A stretch of 32,000 nt of DNA. Origin: Candidatus Electrothrix sp. GW3-4 (GTDB taxonomy: Bacteria; Desulfobacterota; Desulfobulbia; Desulfobulbales; Desulfobulbaceae). Made by a program: the position numbers and the translations under genes. The DNA is taken from the NCBI RefSeq assembly GCF_037902255.1, contig NZ_CP147990.1:3840001-3872000 (forward strand), given 5' to 3'. Shown piece after piece: positions 405 to 11,267 of this stretch (its first letter is position 1; each line of letters starts with the position of its first letter). Below the pieces are notes generated by a model. It was not told the origin of the DNA and did no database searches. It was given only the letters and a program-made list of their open reading frames with translations.

Positions 405-902
405 CTAACGTTTGAACGAGTTAATAACGTGATTCACCCAGTGGGCTTTTTCCTCGCAATCTTCCAGACTGGGACCGATCATACCAGAAAGCTTCTTCAT
501 GTCATCGACCTGTTCAGCACTGGATGTCGACATATTCAACTCCATGAACTGTTGCTCGAATGCCACTCGAAGCTCGGCAGCAGTCTTCACAGATTGTAGA
601 TACTCCTCATAGGCTGCCACATATGCTCGCGTCGGAACCGAGAGATAGTGCGCATTATCCGCACGAAAGCGGGCAAAATGCTCCACTGCGTCTCCCAGCT
701 TATTATCTACGCTACAAAAATTATCATACGCATCTGCATTGCGCTTTTTCCGAAGAAAACCAAAGAGTGAATAGGGCTCCTGGGGTGTTTTTTGGGTAAT
801 TCTCTGGAACTCCGCAATCAACGATTCGCTCTCCTGGACAATCTGATCCAGCTCAGAATGTATCTTGCTCAGCTGCGGCCTCCCCAACTGACTATCATTC
901 AT
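405..902 (-). CDS. hypothetical protein (165 aa, predicted helical, no family recognised)
   Basis: ORF track. Composition is protein-like, with balanced charge and no low complexity. The competing plus-strand ORFs (72-599, 560-799) look like noise. Confidence 0.55.
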   Translation of the reverse strand: MNDSQLGRPQLSKIHSELDQIVQESESLIAEFQRITQKTPQEPYSLFGFLRKKRNADAYDNFCSVDNKLGDAVEHFARFRADNAHYLSVPTRAYVAAYEEYLQSVKTAAELRVAFEQQFMELNMSTSSAEQVDDMKKLSGMIGPSLEDCEEKAHWVNHVINSFKR

Positions 903-1216: not shown

Positions 1217-1498
1217 ATGAGCGAAAAGATACCACAGCAGACACTCGATGGCTGCAAACCAGAGATTCACTACCCCTGTGTCTGGCAGTACAAGGTTATT
1301 GGCATGGAACGCCAAGCAATACAGGCCGCCCTTTCCGAAGAACTGGGAGACGCCCCCTATTCCCTGTCCGAATCCCGCACCTCACGGAAGGGGAAGTATA
1401 TCAGCCTCAACCTGGAGCTGACCGTACATAATGAGGAACAAAGGCTCCACCTGTACAGTTCCCTGACCGCCCATCCCTCGATCAAGCTGGTCCTATGA
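1217..1498 (+). CDS. DUF493 / YbeD-like small protein
   Basis: YPCVWQYKVIG aligns with E. coli YbeD FPTPFTYKVMG. SRKGKYISLNLELTVHNEEQRLHLYSSLTAHPSIKLVL aligns with YbeD [38 protein letters not shown]. The length of 93 aa is typical. Confidence 0.8.
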   Translation: MSEKIPQQTLDGCKPEIHYPCVWQYKVIGMERQAIQAALSEELGDAPYSLSESRTSRKGKYISLNLELTVHNEEQRLHLYSSLTAHPSIKLVL

Positions 1499-2031
1499 AC
1501 CCGGCGGTCCACAATGCCCTTGAAGAGGCCTCGCCAGCCCTTGATGCCAAGATTATCCCGGTCATGCGGGAGGCCATTACCACGGTACAGATGGTCCTCT
1601 TTCAGCGCCTCAAGGAAAATATCTCCCAGCGCTCCGGGCAGTACTCGGAAGAAGAGACGATTCGCTTGGCTGGAGCCCTTGTCAATAATCTCTACGGCAG
1701 CGAGGCGACTGATTCCCAGGTCAACCGCTTTGCCCGCAGCCATCGGGAGCTCATTGAAAAGGAGTTGCGCGGACTCAGCTCCCGGCTCCCGGAATTGATC
1801 CCCCACATCACGGACAGCCTGCGCATGCAGACCCTCTGCGATAACCATGAAGGGATTCACTCCATCCCCTGCCTCTTGCTGGCCAGGGAGCTGGGCCTCT
1901 TGGACGAAGAACGGGAACTCCCCCTGCCCTCCACCTTTATGCTCTCGGTCCGCAAGCTCGGGGCAGCAACCGGCCTGGTCAAACCCATGCAAATGCGTCC
2001 GCCACAGACGGGACAAGAAACAGAGGAGTAA
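1495..2031 (+). CDS. hypothetical protein (178 aa)
   Basis: ATGA start/stop overlap with the DUF493 gene (1495-1498). It ends 4 nt before the ispH ATG, so it fits a three-gene plus-strand operon. No family recognised. Confidence 0.55.
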   Translation: MNPAVHNALEEASPALDAKIIPVMREAITTVQMVLFQRLKENISQRSGQYSEEETIRLAGALVNNLYGSEATDSQVNRFARSHRELIEKELRGLSSRLPELIPHITDSLRMQTLCDNHEGIHSIPCLLLARELGLLDEERELPLPSTFMLSVRKLGAATGLVKPMQMRPPQTGQETEE

Positions 2032-2984: not shown

Positions 2985-3965
2985 TTAAAAGGAATACCCC
3001 ATGGTTATATATACTGACCCCTGATCACTTTCAACTTCCTGATCAATCTGCCCCAACGGCTCCCCGGCAAGCACCTGGTACTGATCCCCGTCAACAGAGA
3101 TATCCGTCAACTGCACGCCCGCTTCCACAAACCACCACGGCGAGATCTGGAAGGTCCCGCTCACCTCAAACATATAGGCAGTGCCGTCCATATCGCCGGT
3201 AGACACCTTATTATAGTAAAGATGATGGAGTTCATCCTCGGAAGAGGCTAGAGGCGCCACAGAAAATTTTCCTGCGAGCTCAAACTGCGAGGTCAACTGC
3301 ACATCAGCAGCCAGCAGGAAATAGATCATGGAAAAGGTGTTCTCATAGGTAACGCCGGTAGAGCCGTTGCCGACATAGGTATAGCCTGAAATACCGGTGG
3401 GAGAGTACTGCATGATCAGGTTGCCCTCGTACTCAAAGTCCTGATACAGGTAACCGATACCGGCAGAGAGGCTCCACGGTCCCTGCTGGAGGTAAGTCCA
3501 CTCAAAATCCAGATCCAGGATGAATGCCTCAAACTCAGAGATACTGCTTTCCGAGTAGATATCCGCTGGTCCGCCCGAAGCAAACCAATCCCGGTCGATC
3601 ATGGTTTCGTCAGGATCATCAACAGCGGTCTTCAGGGTCCCATTGATGCGCCACATGGGGTTCAGGGTCAGCGAGCCATCAAAGCGGGCCAGCAGGATAT
3701 CCATGGGCCACTTCAGTTCACTGATCGGGAAGAAGGTATTCTCATTCTGTCCATTGGCATGGTTGATTTCGCCACCGATGGAAGAGGTCATATCGCCGCT
3801 CACCTCCTCCAGACCAAAGGAGAGGTCAATCATACTTGTTATGTACGGATCAACGTAGGCAGCAGCCTGGGCCTGGTTGAACAGCATACCGGTGCCCATC
3901 AATCCGAATGCCACTCCAAGTCCTCGTATTTTGCGTATCGCCTTTTTTTTTGCTGCTTGTTTCAT
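2985..3965 (-). CDS. omptin-like outer-membrane beta-barrel (putative OM protease), 326 aa
   Basis: Signal peptide ...FNQAQA/AA and a C-terminal aromatic ...MGYSF. Hand alignment to E. coli OmpT gives these correspondences: SELKWP~SQLDWK, TMIDRDWF~NMVDQDWM (Asp83/Asp85 pair), WSLSAGIGYLYQDFEY~YRLGLMAGYQESRYSF, and SSEDELHH~SSDNDEHY (Asp210/His212 region). The ATG overlaps the upstream stop by 1 nt. Confidence 0.6.
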   Translation of the reverse strand: MKQAAKKKAIRKIRGLGVAFGLMGTGMLFNQAQAAAYVDPYITSMIDLSFGLEEVSGDMTSSIGGEINHANGQNENTFFPISELKWPMDILLARFDGSLTLNPMWRINGTLKTAVDDPDETMIDRDWFASGGPADIYSESSISEFEAFILDLDFEWTYLQQGPWSLSAGIGYLYQDFEYEGNLIMQYSPTGISGYTYVGNGSTGVTYENTFSMIYFLLAADVQLTSQFELAGKFSVAPLASSEDELHHLYYNKVSTGDMDGTAYMFEVSGTFQISPWWFVEAGVQLTDISVDGDQYQVLAGEPLGQIDQEVESDQGSVYITMGYSF

Positions 3966-5146
3966 TATACTTTTCCTTCCTTTTTTCCTTTAAGAGACAC
4001 ATTTTTTAAAAGCGGTTTTTTTCCTTTTTCCTCTATGCTGCGTATTTGATCGAAATCAACACGATGGTATAATAAAATGAATAAATCTCCCAAATTATTT
4101 TCAGTATGAGGTATCAACAAGCCATTTTCCTCCTCGAAACAAGTAATCGCATCCTGAAGCTCAGCACTATAATCATAATTTATTTCACCAAAGTAATAAT
4201 TGAGCTTTCTGAGCATCAATTTTAAATATCTAATTCTGGTTAACTTATCAAGCTCCAACCATATCTGATATGCGGATACTGTTTCGTTTGGCGAAGGTCC
4301 ACTCTCCCCGAGGCAACCATTAAAATCTATTTTTTCCCCATACAATCCACGCAGTACCCACAAAGCGGCGGCCTCCACCAATGTTCTCTGGGCTCCGTGC
4401 ATGGCCTCGTTTAATTTTTCTTCTCTGGCAAAGCTCACCCCTCCTTCTCCGGCACCAAAACCAACAGAAAATTCATTTGATTTAGTATGCGTATTGAGCG
4501 TCAGAGTAGTCGCCGCCACAATAGTATTGTCCATCGCATTACCTACATGTACTGTTAGAGAGAGGCTTTTAGATGATTCAGCTTTTCCATATTCAATTTC
4601 CGCCGAACCATGCTTACCATCCACTTCAGCATTATTTCCAAACCCTTTGCTATGATAATCCTCGGAATCATTTTGTGTAAATACGCCTTTGATTCTAATT
4701 ATGCCGGTAACACCATAAATTTTTGCAAGCTCAAGCAAATATTTCTTATCCAATCTGCCGTACACATTTTCTCTTATCAGACCGTTCGGCAACGAATAGG
4801 GAATTACAATTTTTTTATTATAAACACTTCGTTTTATTATAGCTTCAAAATCATACTTACCAGCATCTGCCAACGGACCGTTATCCCTCATTGAACTGAT
4901 AATTAAAGCTTTAGAGTCGGTTATAATGGGCACTGTGCCGTCAAAAAAATCGTCCACCAAAAATAAAACAGGAGAACTCTCTGATTCCGAGAGTTTTTTC
5001 CCTACACACTTCACTGTCTCTGTAAGATTCGTAAGAGCGTCATGTGGTGTTTCCGTATTAATATTCGACATTGATGAATTAATATTAGAACAACCTGATG
5101 CTGCCAATAATAAATATATACAGAAAAAATATAATTTATCAGCCAT
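3965..5146 (-). CDS. lipoprotein, CsgG/HfaB-like N-terminal region fused to a PG_binding_1-like C-terminal domain (393 aa)
   Basis: Lipobox LLLAASG|C. PVLFLVDDFFDGT resembles the CsgG IAVxxFxDxTG motif. GIIRIKGVFTQND...SLSLTVHVGNAMDNTIVAATT...FSVGFGAG...AQRTLVEAAALWVLRGL follows the order of CsgG core elements. The C-terminal LKLMLRKLNYYFGEINYDYSAELQDAITCFEEENGLLIPHTENNLGDLFILL resembles LxxLGYYxGxIDGxFGxxTxxAVxxFQxxxGLxxTG. Recognised by eye only. Confidence 0.45.
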   Translation of the reverse strand: MADKLYFFCIYLLLAASGCSNINSSMSNINTETPHDALTNLTETVKCVGKKLSESESSPVLFLVDDFFDGTVPIITDSKALIISSMRDNGPLADAGKYDFEAIIKRSVYNKKIVIPYSLPNGLIRENVYGRLDKKYLLELAKIYGVTGIIRIKGVFTQNDSEDYHSKGFGNNAEVDGKHGSAEIEYGKAESSKSLSLTVHVGNAMDNTIVAATTLTLNTHTKSNEFSVGFGAGEGGVSFAREEKLNEAMHGAQRTLVEAAALWVLRGLYGEKIDFNGCLGESGPSPNETVSAYQIWLELDKLTRIRYLKLMLRKLNYYFGEINYDYSAELQDAITCFEEENGLLIPHTENNLGDLFILLYHRVDFDQIRSIEEKGKKPLLKNVSLKGKKEGKV

Positions 5147-5632
5147 GTTGATATATTACCCTGTCAATAAAAACAATCATAATTGATGAATTCGTAAAAA
5201 GTCGGTCGTGCCCTTCTTGACTGTTGTTAGGGTAAAAATCGCGAAATACTTATGGGGGGTTCCGGTTATGGAAATCTTGAGCAGTAAAATAAGTCGGTTC
5301 GTTGAATCGCGTCCGTTTTCTGGATTCAACAAAACTCAATAAGGCCACTTATCCACTATTAATCACGAAAATTTCCGTTTTTTACGAAACGGCAGAAAGA
5401 TAAAACAACAAAAAAGGGGTAAACGGCACATTTAAACCTGCCGATTAGAGGTGAGGAATTGATAAATCAAGTAGCACAACACATGATGTACCGTTATTAT
5501 ATTTGATTTAAAAATTACAAACGAACAGATATTCAAGGAACTTCATATAAGGTTCGGCCTGTTAAGCACGATAAAAAAAACCTACACACAGCGCAAAATT
5601 CTAAAGAGGATTTAAACTGCTCTCAAAAAAGA

Positions 5633-5968
5633 TCAATCACATTTAAACGTAAGGCTTTTAATCAAAAATTCCTGTGAAATATTATCACCGTCACTATCGT
5701 TGTAATTTCCATAGAACACACATTTTGGCTCTTCAATATTATCCACTGCTACAATATTCCCGTCCTCTTCCTTCACAATTTCTCCGTTTGTTTTGAGCGG
5801 AGTCGTTCCGACAAACACTTTCAGACTTTTATTCATAACGCTATTCAAGCTCGGATTGGCTTTCAAGCTTGGCACAGACGCCTTTTTTATTTCAGCGCCA
5901 CCTATCGCCGGCGCACTTACATATAAAAAAATCGCAACCAACAGAGCATACAGTGTCCTTGACAACAT
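5633..5968 (-). CDS. small secreted protein (111 aa), C-terminus ...FKCD
   Basis: The start is moved to the ATG at 5968, preceded by AAGGAG 7 nt upstream. Signal peptide MLSRTLYALLVAIFLYVSAPAIGGA. Two Cys residues in the mature part. No family recognised. Confidence 0.6.
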   Translation of the reverse strand: MLSRTLYALLVAIFLYVSAPAIGGAEIKKASVPSLKANPSLNSVMNKSLKVFVGTTPLKTNGEIVKEEDGNIVAVDNIEEPKCVFYGNYNDSDGDNISQEFLIKSLTFKCD

Positions 5969-6088
5969 AAACACTCTCCTTATAACAACATCATTCACCT
6001 TAAAATACAATATGTACCACACGCATACATCTTCTTTACATTCTAACTATACAACATTTTACCCATGAAGAATCGTATAAAACAATCC

Positions 6089-6110
6089 GGGACGTTTTTT
6101 TAAACGTCCC
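6089..6110 (-). terminator. candidate intrinsic terminator after the 137-aa repeat-protein gene
   Basis: GGGACGTTT (6089-6097), loop TTTT, AAACGTCCC (6102-6110): a perfect 9-bp stem. On the minus-strand transcript it is followed by GGAUUGUUUUAU, so the U-tract starts 5 nt after the stem and is imperfect. It lies 64 nt downstream of the stop at 6174. Confidence 0.4.
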
Positions 6111-6173
6111 GAAAAGAACCGCGATTCAATCACCAACAACAACGGCGACTGTGTCACTCAAAACAGCTGACGA

Positions 6174-6587
6174 TCAATCACATGTTTTACAGCTGCTCAC
6201 AACATTAACACCCTGAATGGATCTTTGATTGTTGCGTGCCTTCATTGTTAATTTCTTGAGTTCAGCATTTTGCTTGGAATCTTCCACTTCGCCGGTCATA
6301 ATATTCATACCCTGCACTGAATCAGTAGCTGAATTCTGATCCATAGAAACCGAACTTGAGGCCTCAACTTTCTGCGTGATGTTCTCAGACTTGCTGCTTT
6401 CGACAACGTTGATACCCTGTAAAGAATTTCGGTCGTCATCTGACTCCAGCTGAGTTTGACCGATCTCAGCATTTTGCGTGAGATCTTCCACGGGGTCACC
6501 GCCATGACCGCCCCAGCCATTAGCCATAGACACAGAAGGAACCATCAACATAGCCAATGCAATTGCGGTACAAATTTTTTTATTCAT
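6174..6587 (-). CDS. secreted Q/N/S-rich acidic repeat protein (137 aa), C-terminus ...KTCD
   Basis: The start is moved to the ATG at 6587, preceded by AAGGTGA. Signal peptide MNKKICTAIALAMLMVPSVSMA. There are three units of about 34 aa ending SLQGINVV (55-62), SVQGMNIM (90-97) and SIQGVNVV (123-130). QNAE[IL] occurs at 38 and 106. Confidence 0.7.
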   Translation of the reverse strand: MNKKICTAIALAMLMVPSVSMANGWGGHGGDPVEDLTQNAEIGQTQLESDDDRNSLQGINVVESSKSENITQKVEASSSVSMDQNSATDSVQGMNIMTGEVEDSKQNAELKKLTMKARNNQRSIQGVNVVSSCKTCD

Positions 6588-6640
6588 TTTTATCACCTTT
6601 CTTTTCTTGTTTCGGCCTAGCGTCATTGCCAGCCAGTACT

Positions 6641-6680
6641 ATTATAATGTCAATCTACGATACCATCACGCAGGTGTCAA
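6641..6680 (-). promoter_or_regulatory. sigma70-like promoter for the repeat-protein gene
   Basis: On the minus strand: TTGACA (6680-6675), a 17-nt spacer, then TAGATT (6657-6652). An overlapping TTGACA/TATAAT (TATAAT = 6646-6641) is also present. It sits about 55-60 nt upstream of the start codon. Confidence 0.35.
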
Positions 6681-6822
6681 TTGAAAATTAGTACTTTTCT
6701 GTAAAAAAATACAACTTTTTGTACTTTTCCGCTTGTGCCAGAATGAAAAAAAATAACTTCCCGATTTGCTCCACTGTTGCTGATCTGCTCAAATTGCATG
6801 GCTTCAAGAAGCGCAAAACAGC

Positions 6823-8642: not shown

Positions 8643-9851
8643 TCAATTTGCCTTTTTCCGGATATAGGCAGGCTCATCCCATTCCGCCAGATCATTCTGC
8701 TCATCAAAGATCGGGGTGGGCATAGGACGCAAACCCTTGGGTACCGGATTAGGGCGGGCAAAGCTCGTCGGCTGGTTGGTCGGCGGACGTTCCAGGTCAA
8801 GCCCACCTTTGTCGCTGGCATTGAGCATCTTTACCTTCTTATTATTGGCGCGGCCCACCACGTCAAACTCAGAGATAGTCTCCGCAGAATCCTCAAAATT
8901 GGCAATACCCGTGGCGATCACGGTCACGCGCAACTCATCACCCATATTTTCATCAAACAGGGCGCCGATGATAATATTGGCGTCTTCATGGGCCTTCTCC
9001 TGAATCAGGGCAGAGGCCTCCATAAACTCGCCCATAGTCAACGAACTGGTGGCAGAGATATTGATCAGAATACCCAAGGCACCGTCAATCCCCACATCCT
9101 CCAGCAGCTGATTATCAATGGCTCGCTTAGCAGCCTCGCTGGCCCGATTTTCTCCAGAAGCGGAACCAGAGCCCATGATGGCCGGTCCGACCTCCTTCAT
9201 AACGGTCTTCAGGTCGGCAAAGTCCACATTAATATGGCCAGGCAGATTGATGAGATCGGTAATTCCCTTGACGGCCTGCAGCAGCACATCATCCACCATC
9301 TTCATCATATCAACCAAGGTGGAATTCTTTTGCATAAGGCCCAACAGGCGATCATTGGGGACCGTAATAATGGTATCGGAGTTCTTCTTCAGCTCCTCCC
9401 AACCGGCCTCTGCATTATGCATGCGTTTCTTGGCTTCAAAATAAAAGGGCTTGGTGACCACCGAAACGGTCAGGGCCCCCTGCTCCTTACTGAGCCGGGC
9501 AATAATAGGTGCAGCCCCTGTCCCGGTACCACCGCCAAGACCAGCGGTGACAAAGACCATATCTGCATCAGAGATGGCATTGGCCAGGTCATCCAGACTT
9601 TCCTGGGCCGCATCTCGTCCCATAGCCGGATCAGCCCCGGCCCCCATGCCCTTGGTAATGGTCGGCCCCAGCTGGATACGAATATCCGCTTTGGAGTTCT
9701 CCAGAGCCTGCATATCAGTATTCGCAGCAATAAACTGAACGCCGGTCAGCCGATTATCAACCATGGTGTTAATGGCATTTCCCCCACCGCCACCGACTCC
9801 GATCACCTTGATAGTCGCCACTGACTCTTCTTCTGCCATTCTATATGACAT
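8643..9851 (-). CDS. ftsZ: cell division GTPase FtsZ
   Basis: IKVIGVGGGGGNAINTM, FVTAGLGGGTGTGAAP, NVDFADL, and the C-terminal DEPAYIRKK peptide. The start is placed at the ATG at 9851 (MSYRMAEEE...), preceded by GAGGGGGA. Confidence 0.97.
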   Translation of the reverse strand: MSYRMAEEESVATIKVIGVGGGGGNAINTMVDNRLTGVQFIAANTDMQALENSKADIRIQLGPTITKGMGAGADPAMGRDAAQESLDDLANAISDADMVFVTAGLGGGTGTGAAPIIARLSKEQGALTVSVVTKPFYFEAKKRMHNAEAGWEELKKNSDTIITVPNDRLLGLMQKNSTLVDMMKMVDDVLLQAVKGITDLINLPGHINVDFADLKTVMKEVGPAIMGSGSASGENRASEAAKRAIDNQLLEDVGIDGALGILINISATSSLTMGEFMEASALIQEKAHEDANIIIGALFDENMGDELRVTVIATGIANFEDSAETISEFDVVGRANNKKVKMLNASDKGGLDLERPPTNQPTSFARPNPVPKGLRPMPTPIFDEQNDLAEWDEPAYIRKKAN

Positions 9852-9968
9852 GCTTTCCCCCTCAAGCATTTTGCTCCCGCAGCAAATCAAATAATTAACT
9901 TATGGTACAATACAATGATTCTTTTTTAACAGTTTTACTATAAAGCTGCCATAGAATCTTTTCCAGTA

Positions 9969-11267
9969 TTAAATCATGTTTTTCAGAAAAGTCCTCATCC
10001 TACTTATAAGACCCTCATGCTCAACCGCCACCATCTCTTTATTATTACAACCGTATAAAACAAGCCCAACAGCAGTGGTACAACGCGGTGATTCAACATC
10101 TTCCACCCTGCCCCCAACGCCCCGAGGAAAGCTGACCCGTACTGGCATATCAAAGACCTGCTCGGCCATTTCGACCACATTGGCCAAGAGGGCGGTGCCA
10201 CCAGTGATGACCATGCCCGCATTAATCCGGTTTCTATATCCAGAACCACAGATCTTCTTATTCACCACCTGAAGGATCTCTTCCATTCTGGCCTCCAGAA
10301 TTTCCACCATCACCCGCTGCGAGACCTTACGGGCCTTACGATCACCGACGGTGGGCACCTCGATAATATGATTATCTTTCACCAAAGAAGAGACCGCTCC
10401 ACCGTATCGATACTTGAGCATCTCTGCCTCCTGTAAGGGGGTCCGCAAGCCCACAGAAAGATCATTGGTCAGGTTATTGCCGCCCAGGGCCAGTTCCCAG
10501 GTGTACTTAATGGTGCCGTTACAGAAAACAGCCAGATCCGTGGTCCCCCCGCCAATATCCAGCAGGGCCACACCCAACTCCATTTCATCGGATGTCAAGA
10601 CGGCGCGAGAAGAGGCCACAGACTCCAGAACCACCTCGGCGACATTCAATCCGGCCCGGCTGCAACTGGTGACCAGGTTATGGAGCGAGGTGACATCAGC
10701 GGTCACGATATGGACGTTGGTTGCCAGCCGAACTCCGGTCATGCCCAGCGGGTTCTGAATCCCGGTGTGATCATCAACCATGTACTCCTGCGGCAGGACA
10801 TGAATAATCTGCTGATTATCTGAGATCTTGACGGTCTGAGCCGCGTGAATGACCGCCTGAATCTCTTTCTGCCGGATCTGCTGGTTATTGATGGCAATAA
10901 TTCCGGGAGAATTAAAGCCCTTGATATGGGTCCCGGCGATGCCGACATAGACCGTCTCAATATCACAGCCAGCCATATCCGAGGCACTGTCAATGGCCTG
11001 ACGAATCGCCTTGACCGTTGATTCAATATTGACCACCACACCTTTTTTCATCCCTGAAGATGCAGCTGTGCCCACCCCGATGATGTTCACACAGCCATCT
11101 TCAAAGACCTCGCCGATCACAGCGCATATCTTGGTGGTTCCGATATCAAGACCGGCAACCAGCTCTCCGGTTCCCCGGCTCGGCTCAACTCTATTGGTTT
11201 CTTGCGCTTGCTCTGTTTCTTCCGCCTCAGCAGCCACCTTTATATCCAGCTCTTCCATTGCGCACAT
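9969..11267 (-). CDS. ftsA: cell division protein FtsA
   Basis: Actin-fold motifs GLDIGTTKICAVIGE, LLDIGGGTTDLAVF and VITGGTALL. It begins 3 nt after the ftsQ stop. It carries an N-terminal acidic extension of about 38 aa (see findings). Confidence 0.95.
   Translation of the reverse strand: MCAMEELDIKVAAEAEETEQAQETNRVEPSRGTGELVAGLDIGTTKICAVIGEVFEDGCVNIIGVGTAASSGMKKGVVVNIESTVKAIRQAIDSASDMAGCDIETVYVGIAGTHIKGFNSPGIIAINNQQIRQKEIQAVIHAAQTVKISDNQQIIHVLPQEYMVDDHTGIQNPLGMTGVRLATNVHIVTADVTSLHNLVTSCSRAGLNVAEVVLESVASSRAVLTSDEMELGVALLDIGGGTTDLAVFCNGTIKYTWELALGGNNLTNDLSVGLRTPLQEAEMLKYRYGGAVSSLVKDNHIIEVPTVGDRKARKVSQRVMVEILEARMEEILQVVNKKICGSGYRNRINAGMVITGGTALLANVVEMAEQVFDMPVRVSFPRGVGGRVEDVESPRCTTAVGLVLYGCNNKEMVAVEHEGLISRMRTFLKNMI

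Follow-up and report, generated by a model that had tools for sequence, protein, structure and literature searches.

Here we analyzed a stretch of 32,000 nucleotides of the genome of Candidatus Electrothrix sp. GW3-4 (contig NZ_CP147990.1, positions 3,840,001 to 3,872,000; hereafter the window), in which four consecutive open reading frames (ORFs) on the minus strand, called A, B, C and D in the order of transcription, had been described in an earlier note as a low-GC envelope locus that might export a surface fibre. Gene A (6174-6587; 137 amino acids (aa), with the start codon chosen to fit a signal peptide and the ORF remaining open to 6626) encodes a small repeat protein, gene B (5633-5968, 111 aa) a small secreted protein, gene C (3965-5146, 393 aa) a lipoprotein and gene D (2985-3965, 326 aa) a protein resembling the omptins. 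A consensus scan placed a candidate sigma-70-like promoter upstream of A on the same strand (TTGACA-17-TAGATT, 6652-6680, read from 6680 to 6652; 10/12 matches, a match of pattern only), and C and D overlap by one nucleotide, base 3965 being common to the stop codon of C and the start codon of D (TAATG). The gene order, the promoter and the overlap had all been described in the earlier note and were recovered here. The low GC content that it attributed to the whole locus was confirmed for A (44%), B (40%), the spacer between B and C (36%) and C (38%), to be compared with 52.5% in the rest of the window, but not for D, which with 51.6% is like its flanks, such that the low-GC stretch is limited to the three genes A-B-C.

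The similarity of D to the omptins was upheld, since the protein matches the family Omptin (PF01278) above the gathering cutoff (E = 1.1e-10, 41.6 bits against 22.6 bits, residues 74-264). Catalysis in OmpT depends on Asp83/Asp85 and Asp210/His212. When D was aligned with E. coli OmpT, to which it is approximately 25% identical, the motif MIDRDW was aligned with MVDQDW (D124-x-D126-W of D with D83-x-D85-W of OmpT) and H248 with His212, and the column of Asp210 was occupied by L246, with E245/H247 as an alternative register in this pairwise alignment at 25% identity. A phmmer search of D against PDB did not reach OmpT. What did not survive was the proposal that D is a partner of the other three genes. 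Under such a proposal the four-gene system would be real and D would be dedicated to processing or anchoring the exported subunit, being translationally coupled to C; the orientation of C and D on the same strand, their overlap by one nucleotide and the conservation of the D-x-D-W motif all favour it. Synteny points the other way. The earlier note had named co-occurrence of the four genes in other genomes as a test, and A-B-C do occur together elsewhere, but in none of the other A-B-C loci tested is there a D homologue at a distance of up to 6-7 kb from C. Moreover, in two metagenomic contigs of close relatives (L026 and L027), in which FtsZ is 95%, the radical-SAM protein 87-88% and D 81-84% identical to their counterparts in the window, the order of the genes is ftsA, ftsZ, the radical-SAM gene, approximately 220 nucleotides, D and then a convergent ispH, with no A-B-C between the radical-SAM gene and D. 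The flank-like GC content of D is a further point against the four-gene proposal, as is the end of the C ORF: the approximately 45 nucleotides that precede the ATG of D, which form the 3' end of C (its last ~15 codons), can be aligned with the leader and the ribosome-binding site that D has natively in L026 and L027. Because these relatives carry the radical-SAM gene and D without A-B-C and because the end of C aligns to the leader of D, the segment at ~4005-6780, between the radical-SAM gene and D, can be identified as an insertion, with the similarity to the D leader resuming at ~4005 and the left edge poorly defined between 6700 and 6822. The grouping of four genes, the one-nucleotide overlap between C and D and the tail of C (..LKNVSLKGKKEGKV) are consequently by-products of this insertion. 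Judged by synteny, then, D is a resident neighbour and no conserved part of the A-B-C module; we have rejected it as a component of the system, and the four-gene proposal, largely refuted, retains only a very small probability. The insertion has displaced the native upstream region of D (3965-4010 in the window; L026:5950-6003), and the expression of D in this genome may rely on transcripts that read through from C.

Conservation of the three remaining genes as a unit was examined by comparing the four window proteins, using BLAST, with all the ORFs of 14 different loci of cable bacteria, represented by 16 locus records. A, in one to eight copies, B and C were found in that order in 14/14 loci, and the neighbourhoods outside A-B-C differ from genome to genome. 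There are 40 close homologues of C (54-71% identity; at least 55% for the best local segment), and the only named organisms among them are Electrothrix, Electronema and the cable-bacterial 'Desulfobulbus sp.' TB, F1 and F4. A genome scan conducted with alignment A1 likewise returned the close cable-bacterial clade only, 12/12 of the GTDB loci belonging to Electrothrix, Electronema or unclassified Desulfobulbaceae metagenome-assembled genomes. The number of A genes varies: most species have two paralogues, a single copy is present in the window and in E. gigas, and strain YB6 (Ca. Electrothrix sp. YB6, CP178758.1; L004:938-5214, identical to L012) has eight in tandem ahead of B and C, six of which are identical, encode 141 aa and are repeated with a pitch of 537 nucleotides. 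No relic of extra copies of A, B or C was detected anywhere in the window. In 15/16 locus records the GC content of A-B-C lies below that of the flanks.

To cover the wider family of C, 1.84 billion representatives were searched exhaustively with a profile, which yielded approximately 45 full-length distant relatives (20-40% identity) and a further group matching only the hairpin region described below. The layout A-B-C is found in Neisseria montereyensis (129 + 119 + 297 aa), in the contigs L024 (130 + 98 + 297 aa) and L022 (160 + 135 + 384 aa) and, as far as the sizes of the proteins go, in one further contig (144 + 103 + 369 aa), and L006 carries a B fragment followed by C. Because the three-gene layout recurs in N. 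montereyensis and in these distant loci, the module, as judged from gene content, is rare but not confined to cable bacteria. In another distant contig (L023:1-13125, ERZ21862645) an A-like gene, an ORF in the position of B and a C-like gene lie between genes for TraG/TrwB-type coupling proteins and a gene for a serine recombinase, which suggests that this copy is carried on an integrative conjugative element. Both the low GC content in 15/16 records and these neighbours of one distant copy fit a mobile module. A tblastn search of C against plasmids found nothing. We also observed a second C-type gene, approximately 25% identical to C of the window and preceded by two small Q-rich ORFs, on a short contig binned to Electrothrix sp. 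AX5 (L028:41-2602; the binning is unverified), and some cable bacteria may hence carry a divergent second module.

The protein encoded by C has a signal peptide and a lipobox (..AASG/C19, the slash marking the cleavage site), of which ..SG/C is kept across the orthologues with position +2 never being Asp, and on the basis of this lipobox it is a predicted outer-membrane lipoprotein. Residues ~27-280 make up a predicted CsgG-fold domain and residues ~286-360 a helical domain of peptidoglycan-binding type. Throughout the distant C family four residues do not vary (C47, D69, Q253 and C278), and the invariant F-x-D-G-T that follows strand 1 resembles I-Q-D-E-T-G of CsgG. The AlphaFold2 model, with a mean predicted local distance difference test score (pLDDT) of 64, combines an alpha/beta N-domain, in which three strands (148-162, 182-203 and 208-230) are very long, with a helical C-domain. 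When PDB was searched with this model using Foldseek, ranks 1-13 were all CsgG (4uv2, 4uv3, 6l7c; E = 1e-5 to 4e-5, probability 1.0; target-normalised template modelling (TM) score 0.34-0.44), and the next ranks were HpaA, FlgT, GNA1162, LptE and PelC, with the same core fold. In addition, in two hairpins of C (~164-188 and ~224-241) hydrophobic or aromatic columns strictly alternate with Gly or polar columns among 46 relatives of 20-63% identity, and the same pattern is present in the transmembrane hairpins of the E. coli CsgG sequence; hhalign pairs only one stretch of C with E. coli CsgG, namely the strand preceding the first hairpin together with the hairpin itself. Because of the Foldseek ranking and of the alternating hairpins, and despite the lack of a sequence match, we assigned the CsgG fold to C, which probably has this fold and probably works like CsgG without being a demonstrable member of PF03783.

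The earlier note had also recognised a PG_binding_1-like domain at the end of C. For C of the window the match to PF01471 is sub-threshold (13.2 bits against a cutoff of 23 bits, E = 0.11), but 13/46 full-length relatives match PG_binding_1 at E <= 0.01 (best 8.7e-7), and two more match SPOR and one PG_binding_3. This peptidoglycan-binding-type region is the best-modelled part of C (pLDDT 84-93), and the C profile at positions ~300-345 matches many unrelated proteins in 4-10 repeated stretches, which can be read as repeated peptidoglycan-binding domains. Across the family the C-terminal domain is exchangeable (PG_binding_1, SPOR, PG_binding_3) or absent, as in the 297-aa C proteins of N. montereyensis and L024, in whose loci A and B are kept. 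The C orthologues of E. gigas and YB6 (L003:7100-7560 and L004:7100-7539; also P0002 and P0005) bear after this domain a Lys/Pro/Gln-rich tandem-repeat tail of 120-170 aa (for example AEQRGRVHSPKPKKQEKTLPGKTTKKFD repeated), and C of the window is devoid of such a tail.

A role for C other than that of a pore is the main rival to the CsgG-like function just proposed. C would in that case be a CsgG-core lipoprotein linking the outer membrane to the peptidoglycan, in an envelope-tethering or periplasmic structural module in which A and B are periplasmic partners and build, or decorate, a structure in the periplasm. Several of the weaker Foldseek matches of C (HpaA, FlgT, LptE, PelC and GNA1162) are lipoproteins that are not pores of the CsgG type, the domain at the end of C is of peptidoglycan-binding type, the hairpins of C are modelled at low confidence and, in Electronema, a gene for a YkuD-type L,D-transpeptidase lies directly downstream of C (L001:7177-9181, L002:7457-8266), all of which are in favour of tethering. 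Against it, CsgG outranks every other lipoprotein in the fold search, and a pair of long hairpins with conserved alternating hydrophobicity is a feature of CsgG; to our knowledge, no such pair of long hairpins is present in LptE, PelC or HpaA. The C proteins of Neisseria and L024 that have no peptidoglycan-binding domain and nonetheless keep A and B with them are also difficult to accommodate in a tether. Taking both sides together we regard the tethering role as unlikely, although it deserves to be carried along as a serious competitor of the pore. One of the two Electronema loci (L001) also has a gene for a rhodanese-lactamase_B fusion downstream of C.

Gene A encodes a protein with a signal peptide (..SVSMA/NG), three repeats of ~34-35 aa and a C-terminal C-x-x-C-D, the protein ending in ..KTCD. 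Each repeat bears the motifs Q-x-A and Q-G-x-N-[VI], with QGxN[VI] located at positions 57, 92 and 125 and Q[NK][AV]E at positions 38, 72 and 106. In the family alignments A3 and A4 (25 and 48 sequences) N60, N95, N128, Q72 and Q125 are invariant and Q38, Q92 and Q106 are near-invariant. The autocorrelation of the family profile peaks at lag 35 (0.386) and at lag 70 (0.237), the periodicity at lag 35 being more than 10 standard deviations over that of shuffled columns (shuffled maximum -0.455 +/- 0.08). The three repeats noticed earlier are accordingly real, with a period of 35 residues and with conserved Gln and Asn motifs. The AlphaFold2 model of A is all-beta, with seven strands and a pLDDT of 71-92 per 10-residue block, mostly above 80, in the mature part. 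A belongs to no family in Pfam, NCBIfam or PHROGs, with 0/48 family members matched in Pfam, and the curlin repeat that the earlier note had proposed to look for was not found (PF07012, 0/48 members).

The Cys-Asp ends highlighted in the earlier note are present in both A (..KTCD) and B (..FKCD), but it is the penultimate Cys that is the conserved terminal feature, and the residue after it may be D, Q, N, K, E, L, F or Y. The idea of Cys-Asp as a sorting signal was rejected because the residue that follows Cys varies across both the A and the B families. Most of the cable-bacterial copies of A have a terminal C-x2-4-C-x, and the versions of Neisseria, L024 and L022 do not.

In an alternative reading, C and B deliver A to the surface as a beta-solenoid, either a monomer or an oligomer, which might be an adhesin or a coat of mineral- or ice-binding type and would form no amyloid-like fibre. 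The list of non-significant fold matches of the A model is mostly composed of beta-helix or solenoid proteins, with ice-binding proteins, SufD and a putative protein of cell adhesion among them, and these, together with the very polar repeats of A in the window, are compatible with such a coat; the CsgA fibril is on the same list. Three short, open-ended rungs with Gln/Asn ladders resemble, however, polymerising amyloid subunits (CsgA, FapC), and the eight-fold tandem amplification of A suits a bulk polymer. We therefore consider the non-fibrous surface solenoid to be improbable.

The small secreted protein B (111 aa) has no family in Pfam, NCBIfam or PHROGs, and its search against PDB sequence profiles gave noise only. 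In alignment A6, which comprises 17 orthologues and takes in Neisseria and one distant metagenomic sequence, G62, C83 (in the motif EPKCVFYGNY), F85, G87 and the penultimate C110 are invariant, and Cys83 and Cys110 probably form one disulfide. B adjoins C, immediately upstream, in the 14 cable-bacterial loci and in L006, L019, L022 and L024; in L023 the ORF in the position of B is without the Cys motif. The invariant Cys pair and the place upstream of C suggest that B is a conserved accessory component of the module, a partner to which the earlier note gave too little weight.

Taking the insertion, the synteny, the predicted fold of C and the motifs of A as a whole, we read the segment ~4005-6780 as a horizontally mobile, low-GC module of three genes that has entered the genome upstream of a resident, unrelated gene of the omptin family and that serves a surface-fibre pathway of curli-like (type VIII-like) kind, and we give this reading an even chance of being correct. 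The gene content, the conserved A-B-C order, the periodicity of the repeats, the conserved Cys, Gln and Asn positions, the predicted fold of C with its amphipathic hairpins, the insertion and the exclusion of D from the module are results of the analysis, and it is from fold, motifs and synteny that we infer the formation of a pore, export, polymerisation and the role of B. A, B and C would be exported by Sec, after which C would be lipidated, sorted to the outer membrane and oligomerised in the manner of CsgG, two amphipathic hairpins per protomer forming a beta-barrel pore and the C-terminal domain tying the complex to peptidoglycan. A would be a subunit of beta-solenoid type with three rungs and Gln/Asn ladders that crosses the pore in an unfolded state and forms polymers outside the cell as its repeats stack, and subunits may be cross-linked through its terminal CxxC, a role already suggested for the CXXC of FapC. 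B, with its one disulfide, would act as a periplasmic or pore-associated accessory (an adaptor, a plug or a nucleator) in the logical place of CsgE, CsgF or CsgB. The strong hairpin that follows A would permit an excess of subunit expression, and the eight tandem A genes of YB6 are what is expected of a bulk structural subunit.

Several results weigh against this curli-like pathway. At the level of sequence, C has no match to CsgG (PF03783) at E <= 1 and 0/46 of its relatives have one at E <= 0.01, and the alignment by hhalign of the C profile with E. coli CsgG is non-significant (probability 2.5%), so that the CsgG-like nature claimed for C in the earlier note holds for the predicted fold, with its Foldseek ranks 1-13, and not for the sequence. 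Searching PDB sequences with the C profile gave noise only and no CsgG chain, and the N-domain of C has no model in Pfam, NCBIfam or PHROGs. The comparison of the A, B and C profiles by hhalign found no significant sequence homology to CsgA, CsgB, CsgC, CsgE or CsgF either, in accordance with the earlier observation that no CsgE, CsgF, CsgB or CsgD is recognisable at the locus. Nor did the A profile find more than noise among PDB sequences, with no FapC chain at E <= 10 and no CsgA chain, and the A model had no significant match in a fold search of PDB. At the level of structure, the C model is of moderate quality overall (64) with hairpin tips at pLDDT below 50, its fold matches reach TM-scores of only 0.4-0.5, and LptE, PelC and HpaA, among the weaker matches, are not pores of the CsgG type. 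Finally, the repeats of A in the window are polar to a degree that is unusual for an amyloid core. Being drawn from gene and predicted-fold data, the fibre function of A-B-C is that of a candidate.

Because the clade is cable-bacterial, A is amplified in YB6 and the proteins of the sheath and fibres are undefined in the papers, A, B and C are concrete candidate proteins for the proteomics of the cable-bacterial sheath and conductive fibres. Strain YB6 is reported to make extracellular sheaths of 'undefined nanofibers' in abundance and to have ridges that exceed those of other species 2-3 times in width (PMC12093952), and the papers in which the sheath is described in these terms and the fibres are treated do not state which proteins make up the conductive fibres (PMC12093952, PMC11976967, PMC13534509). 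One could go further and propose that the A-type ladder subunits scaffold a cable-bacterial envelope structure, either the nanofibre sheath or the periplasmic compartment of conductive fibres and ridges, that the CxxC thiols cross-link the subunits or anchor a Ni/S cofactor, Ni-bis(dithiolene), and that the number of A genes (1, 2, 8) sets the amount. All the close orthologues with a name come from cable bacteria or from 'Desulfobulbus sp.' TB, F1 and F4, the terminal C-x2-4-C is found in most of the cable-bacterial A proteins and is lacking in those of Neisseria, L024 and L022, the strain with eight A genes is the one reported to have abundant nanofibre sheaths and wide ridges, and Ni-dithiolene oligomers cross-linked to cysteine have been modelled (PMC13534509). 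Nevertheless, the module also occurs in non-conductive bacteria, a channel of CsgG type implies export past the outer membrane rather than a periplasmic location, the correlation in YB6 is that of a single strain, and no proteomic link is known. This specialised scaffold role is in our view very improbable.

The literature searched, including the main papers on cable-bacterial genomics and fibres, contains no mention of the A-B-C module or of its proteins, which bears out the earlier view that the combination is not a described system. That view was right as to an undescribed system with a CsgG-like lipoprotein, a peptidoglycan anchor and a repeat subunit, and wrong as to the omptin partner. 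If our reading is true, CsgG-type (type VIII) secretion extends beyond the curli and holdfast lineages that can be recognised by sequence, and A-B-C would represent a rare, mobile and sequence-divergent branch of it with a subunit design of its own (three Gln/Asn-ladder repeats of ~35 aa, often with CxxC) and a single accessory protein. Neisseria montereyensis, being a named carrier, may serve as a host for genetic tests. A word of caution for the reading of genomes also follows from D, because a tidy operon of four genes with an overlap of one nucleotide was here produced by insertion into the leader of another gene.

Other features of the window can be described briefly. A terminator-like hairpin on the minus strand, consisting of a 12-bp stem and a T-run, lies between A and B (6086-6113) and may act as an attenuator, such that A is expressed more strongly than B and C. 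The spacer between B and C (5147-5632, minus strand) is 486 nucleotides long, to be compared with 12-85 nucleotides in the Electronema loci, and is without recognisable content: it holds one promoter-like and one terminator-like match, and no ORF, Rfam family or relic of A, B or C was detected in it. Scans of the window for Rfam families and tRNAs gave no matches. The flanking genes are ispH/LytB, a DUF493 gene, the radical-SAM gene, ftsZ and ftsA. At the ftsA-ftsZ junction (9751-10050) the GC content dips to 0.39 with a strongly negative GC skew, the cell-division cluster being otherwise at ~52%. Two ORFs have no Pfam match, one at 405-902 (minus strand, 165 aa) and one at 1495-2031 (plus strand, 178 aa), and in L026 and L027 the latter is conserved at 77-81% identity, again next to ispH and the DUF493 gene.

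Placing these results among the known systems requires D to be treated apart from the module. Like the omptins OmpT, Pla and PgtE, D exceeds the gathering threshold of PF01278 and has kept the D-x-D-W motif and the His aligned with His212, and unlike them it is only ~25% identical to OmpT and, in the pairwise alignment, has Leu246 at the position of Asp210, Glu245/His247 offering another register. Among the systems that handle surface fibres, HfaA, HfaB and HfaD of the Caulobacter holdfast anchor form a compact set in which HfaB, a CsgG-related lipoprotein, handles small amyloid-like secreted partners that reach the envelope or the surface. HfaB is recognisable by sequence as a member of the CsgG family and C is not, the comparison of A-B-C with Hfa being one of description. 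The likeness to curli is that C is a lipoprotein with the CsgG predicted fold and two amphipathic hairpins, that A is small, bears a signal peptide and has imperfect repeats with conserved Gln and Asn, as well as Gly, positions, and that a small accessory protein (B) is encoded alongside. A-B-C departs from curli in having no Pfam match to CsgG or Curlin_rpt and, by hhalign, nothing significant against the Csg proteins, in having a single accessory protein, B, whose conserved Cys pair is read as a disulfide, in the peptidoglycan-binding domain at the C-terminus of C, in the CxxC at the end of many A proteins, and in having all three genes on one strand with no regulator of the CsgD type. The unit of A is also longer and less often repeated, ~35 aa three times against ~20 aa five times in CsgA (bioRxiv 10.1101/2020.03.09.983882).

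In the case of Fap, A has no sequence match to FapC at the level of profiles, its repeat motifs differ and it is without long linkers. The Fap system is served by the FapF barrel and the FapD protease, whereas A is adjoined only by B and by C with its CsgG fold, and no FapF or FapD partner accompanies it. In FapC, a signal peptide is followed by three imperfect repeats, ~105 residues in all, and by a CXXC conserved near the C-terminus, through which disulfides between molecules may form (bioRxiv 10.1101/2020.03.09.983882). A shares this architecture, with its own signal peptide, three repeats of ~35 residues and C-terminal CXXC, and the resemblance between the two proteins is one of architecture.

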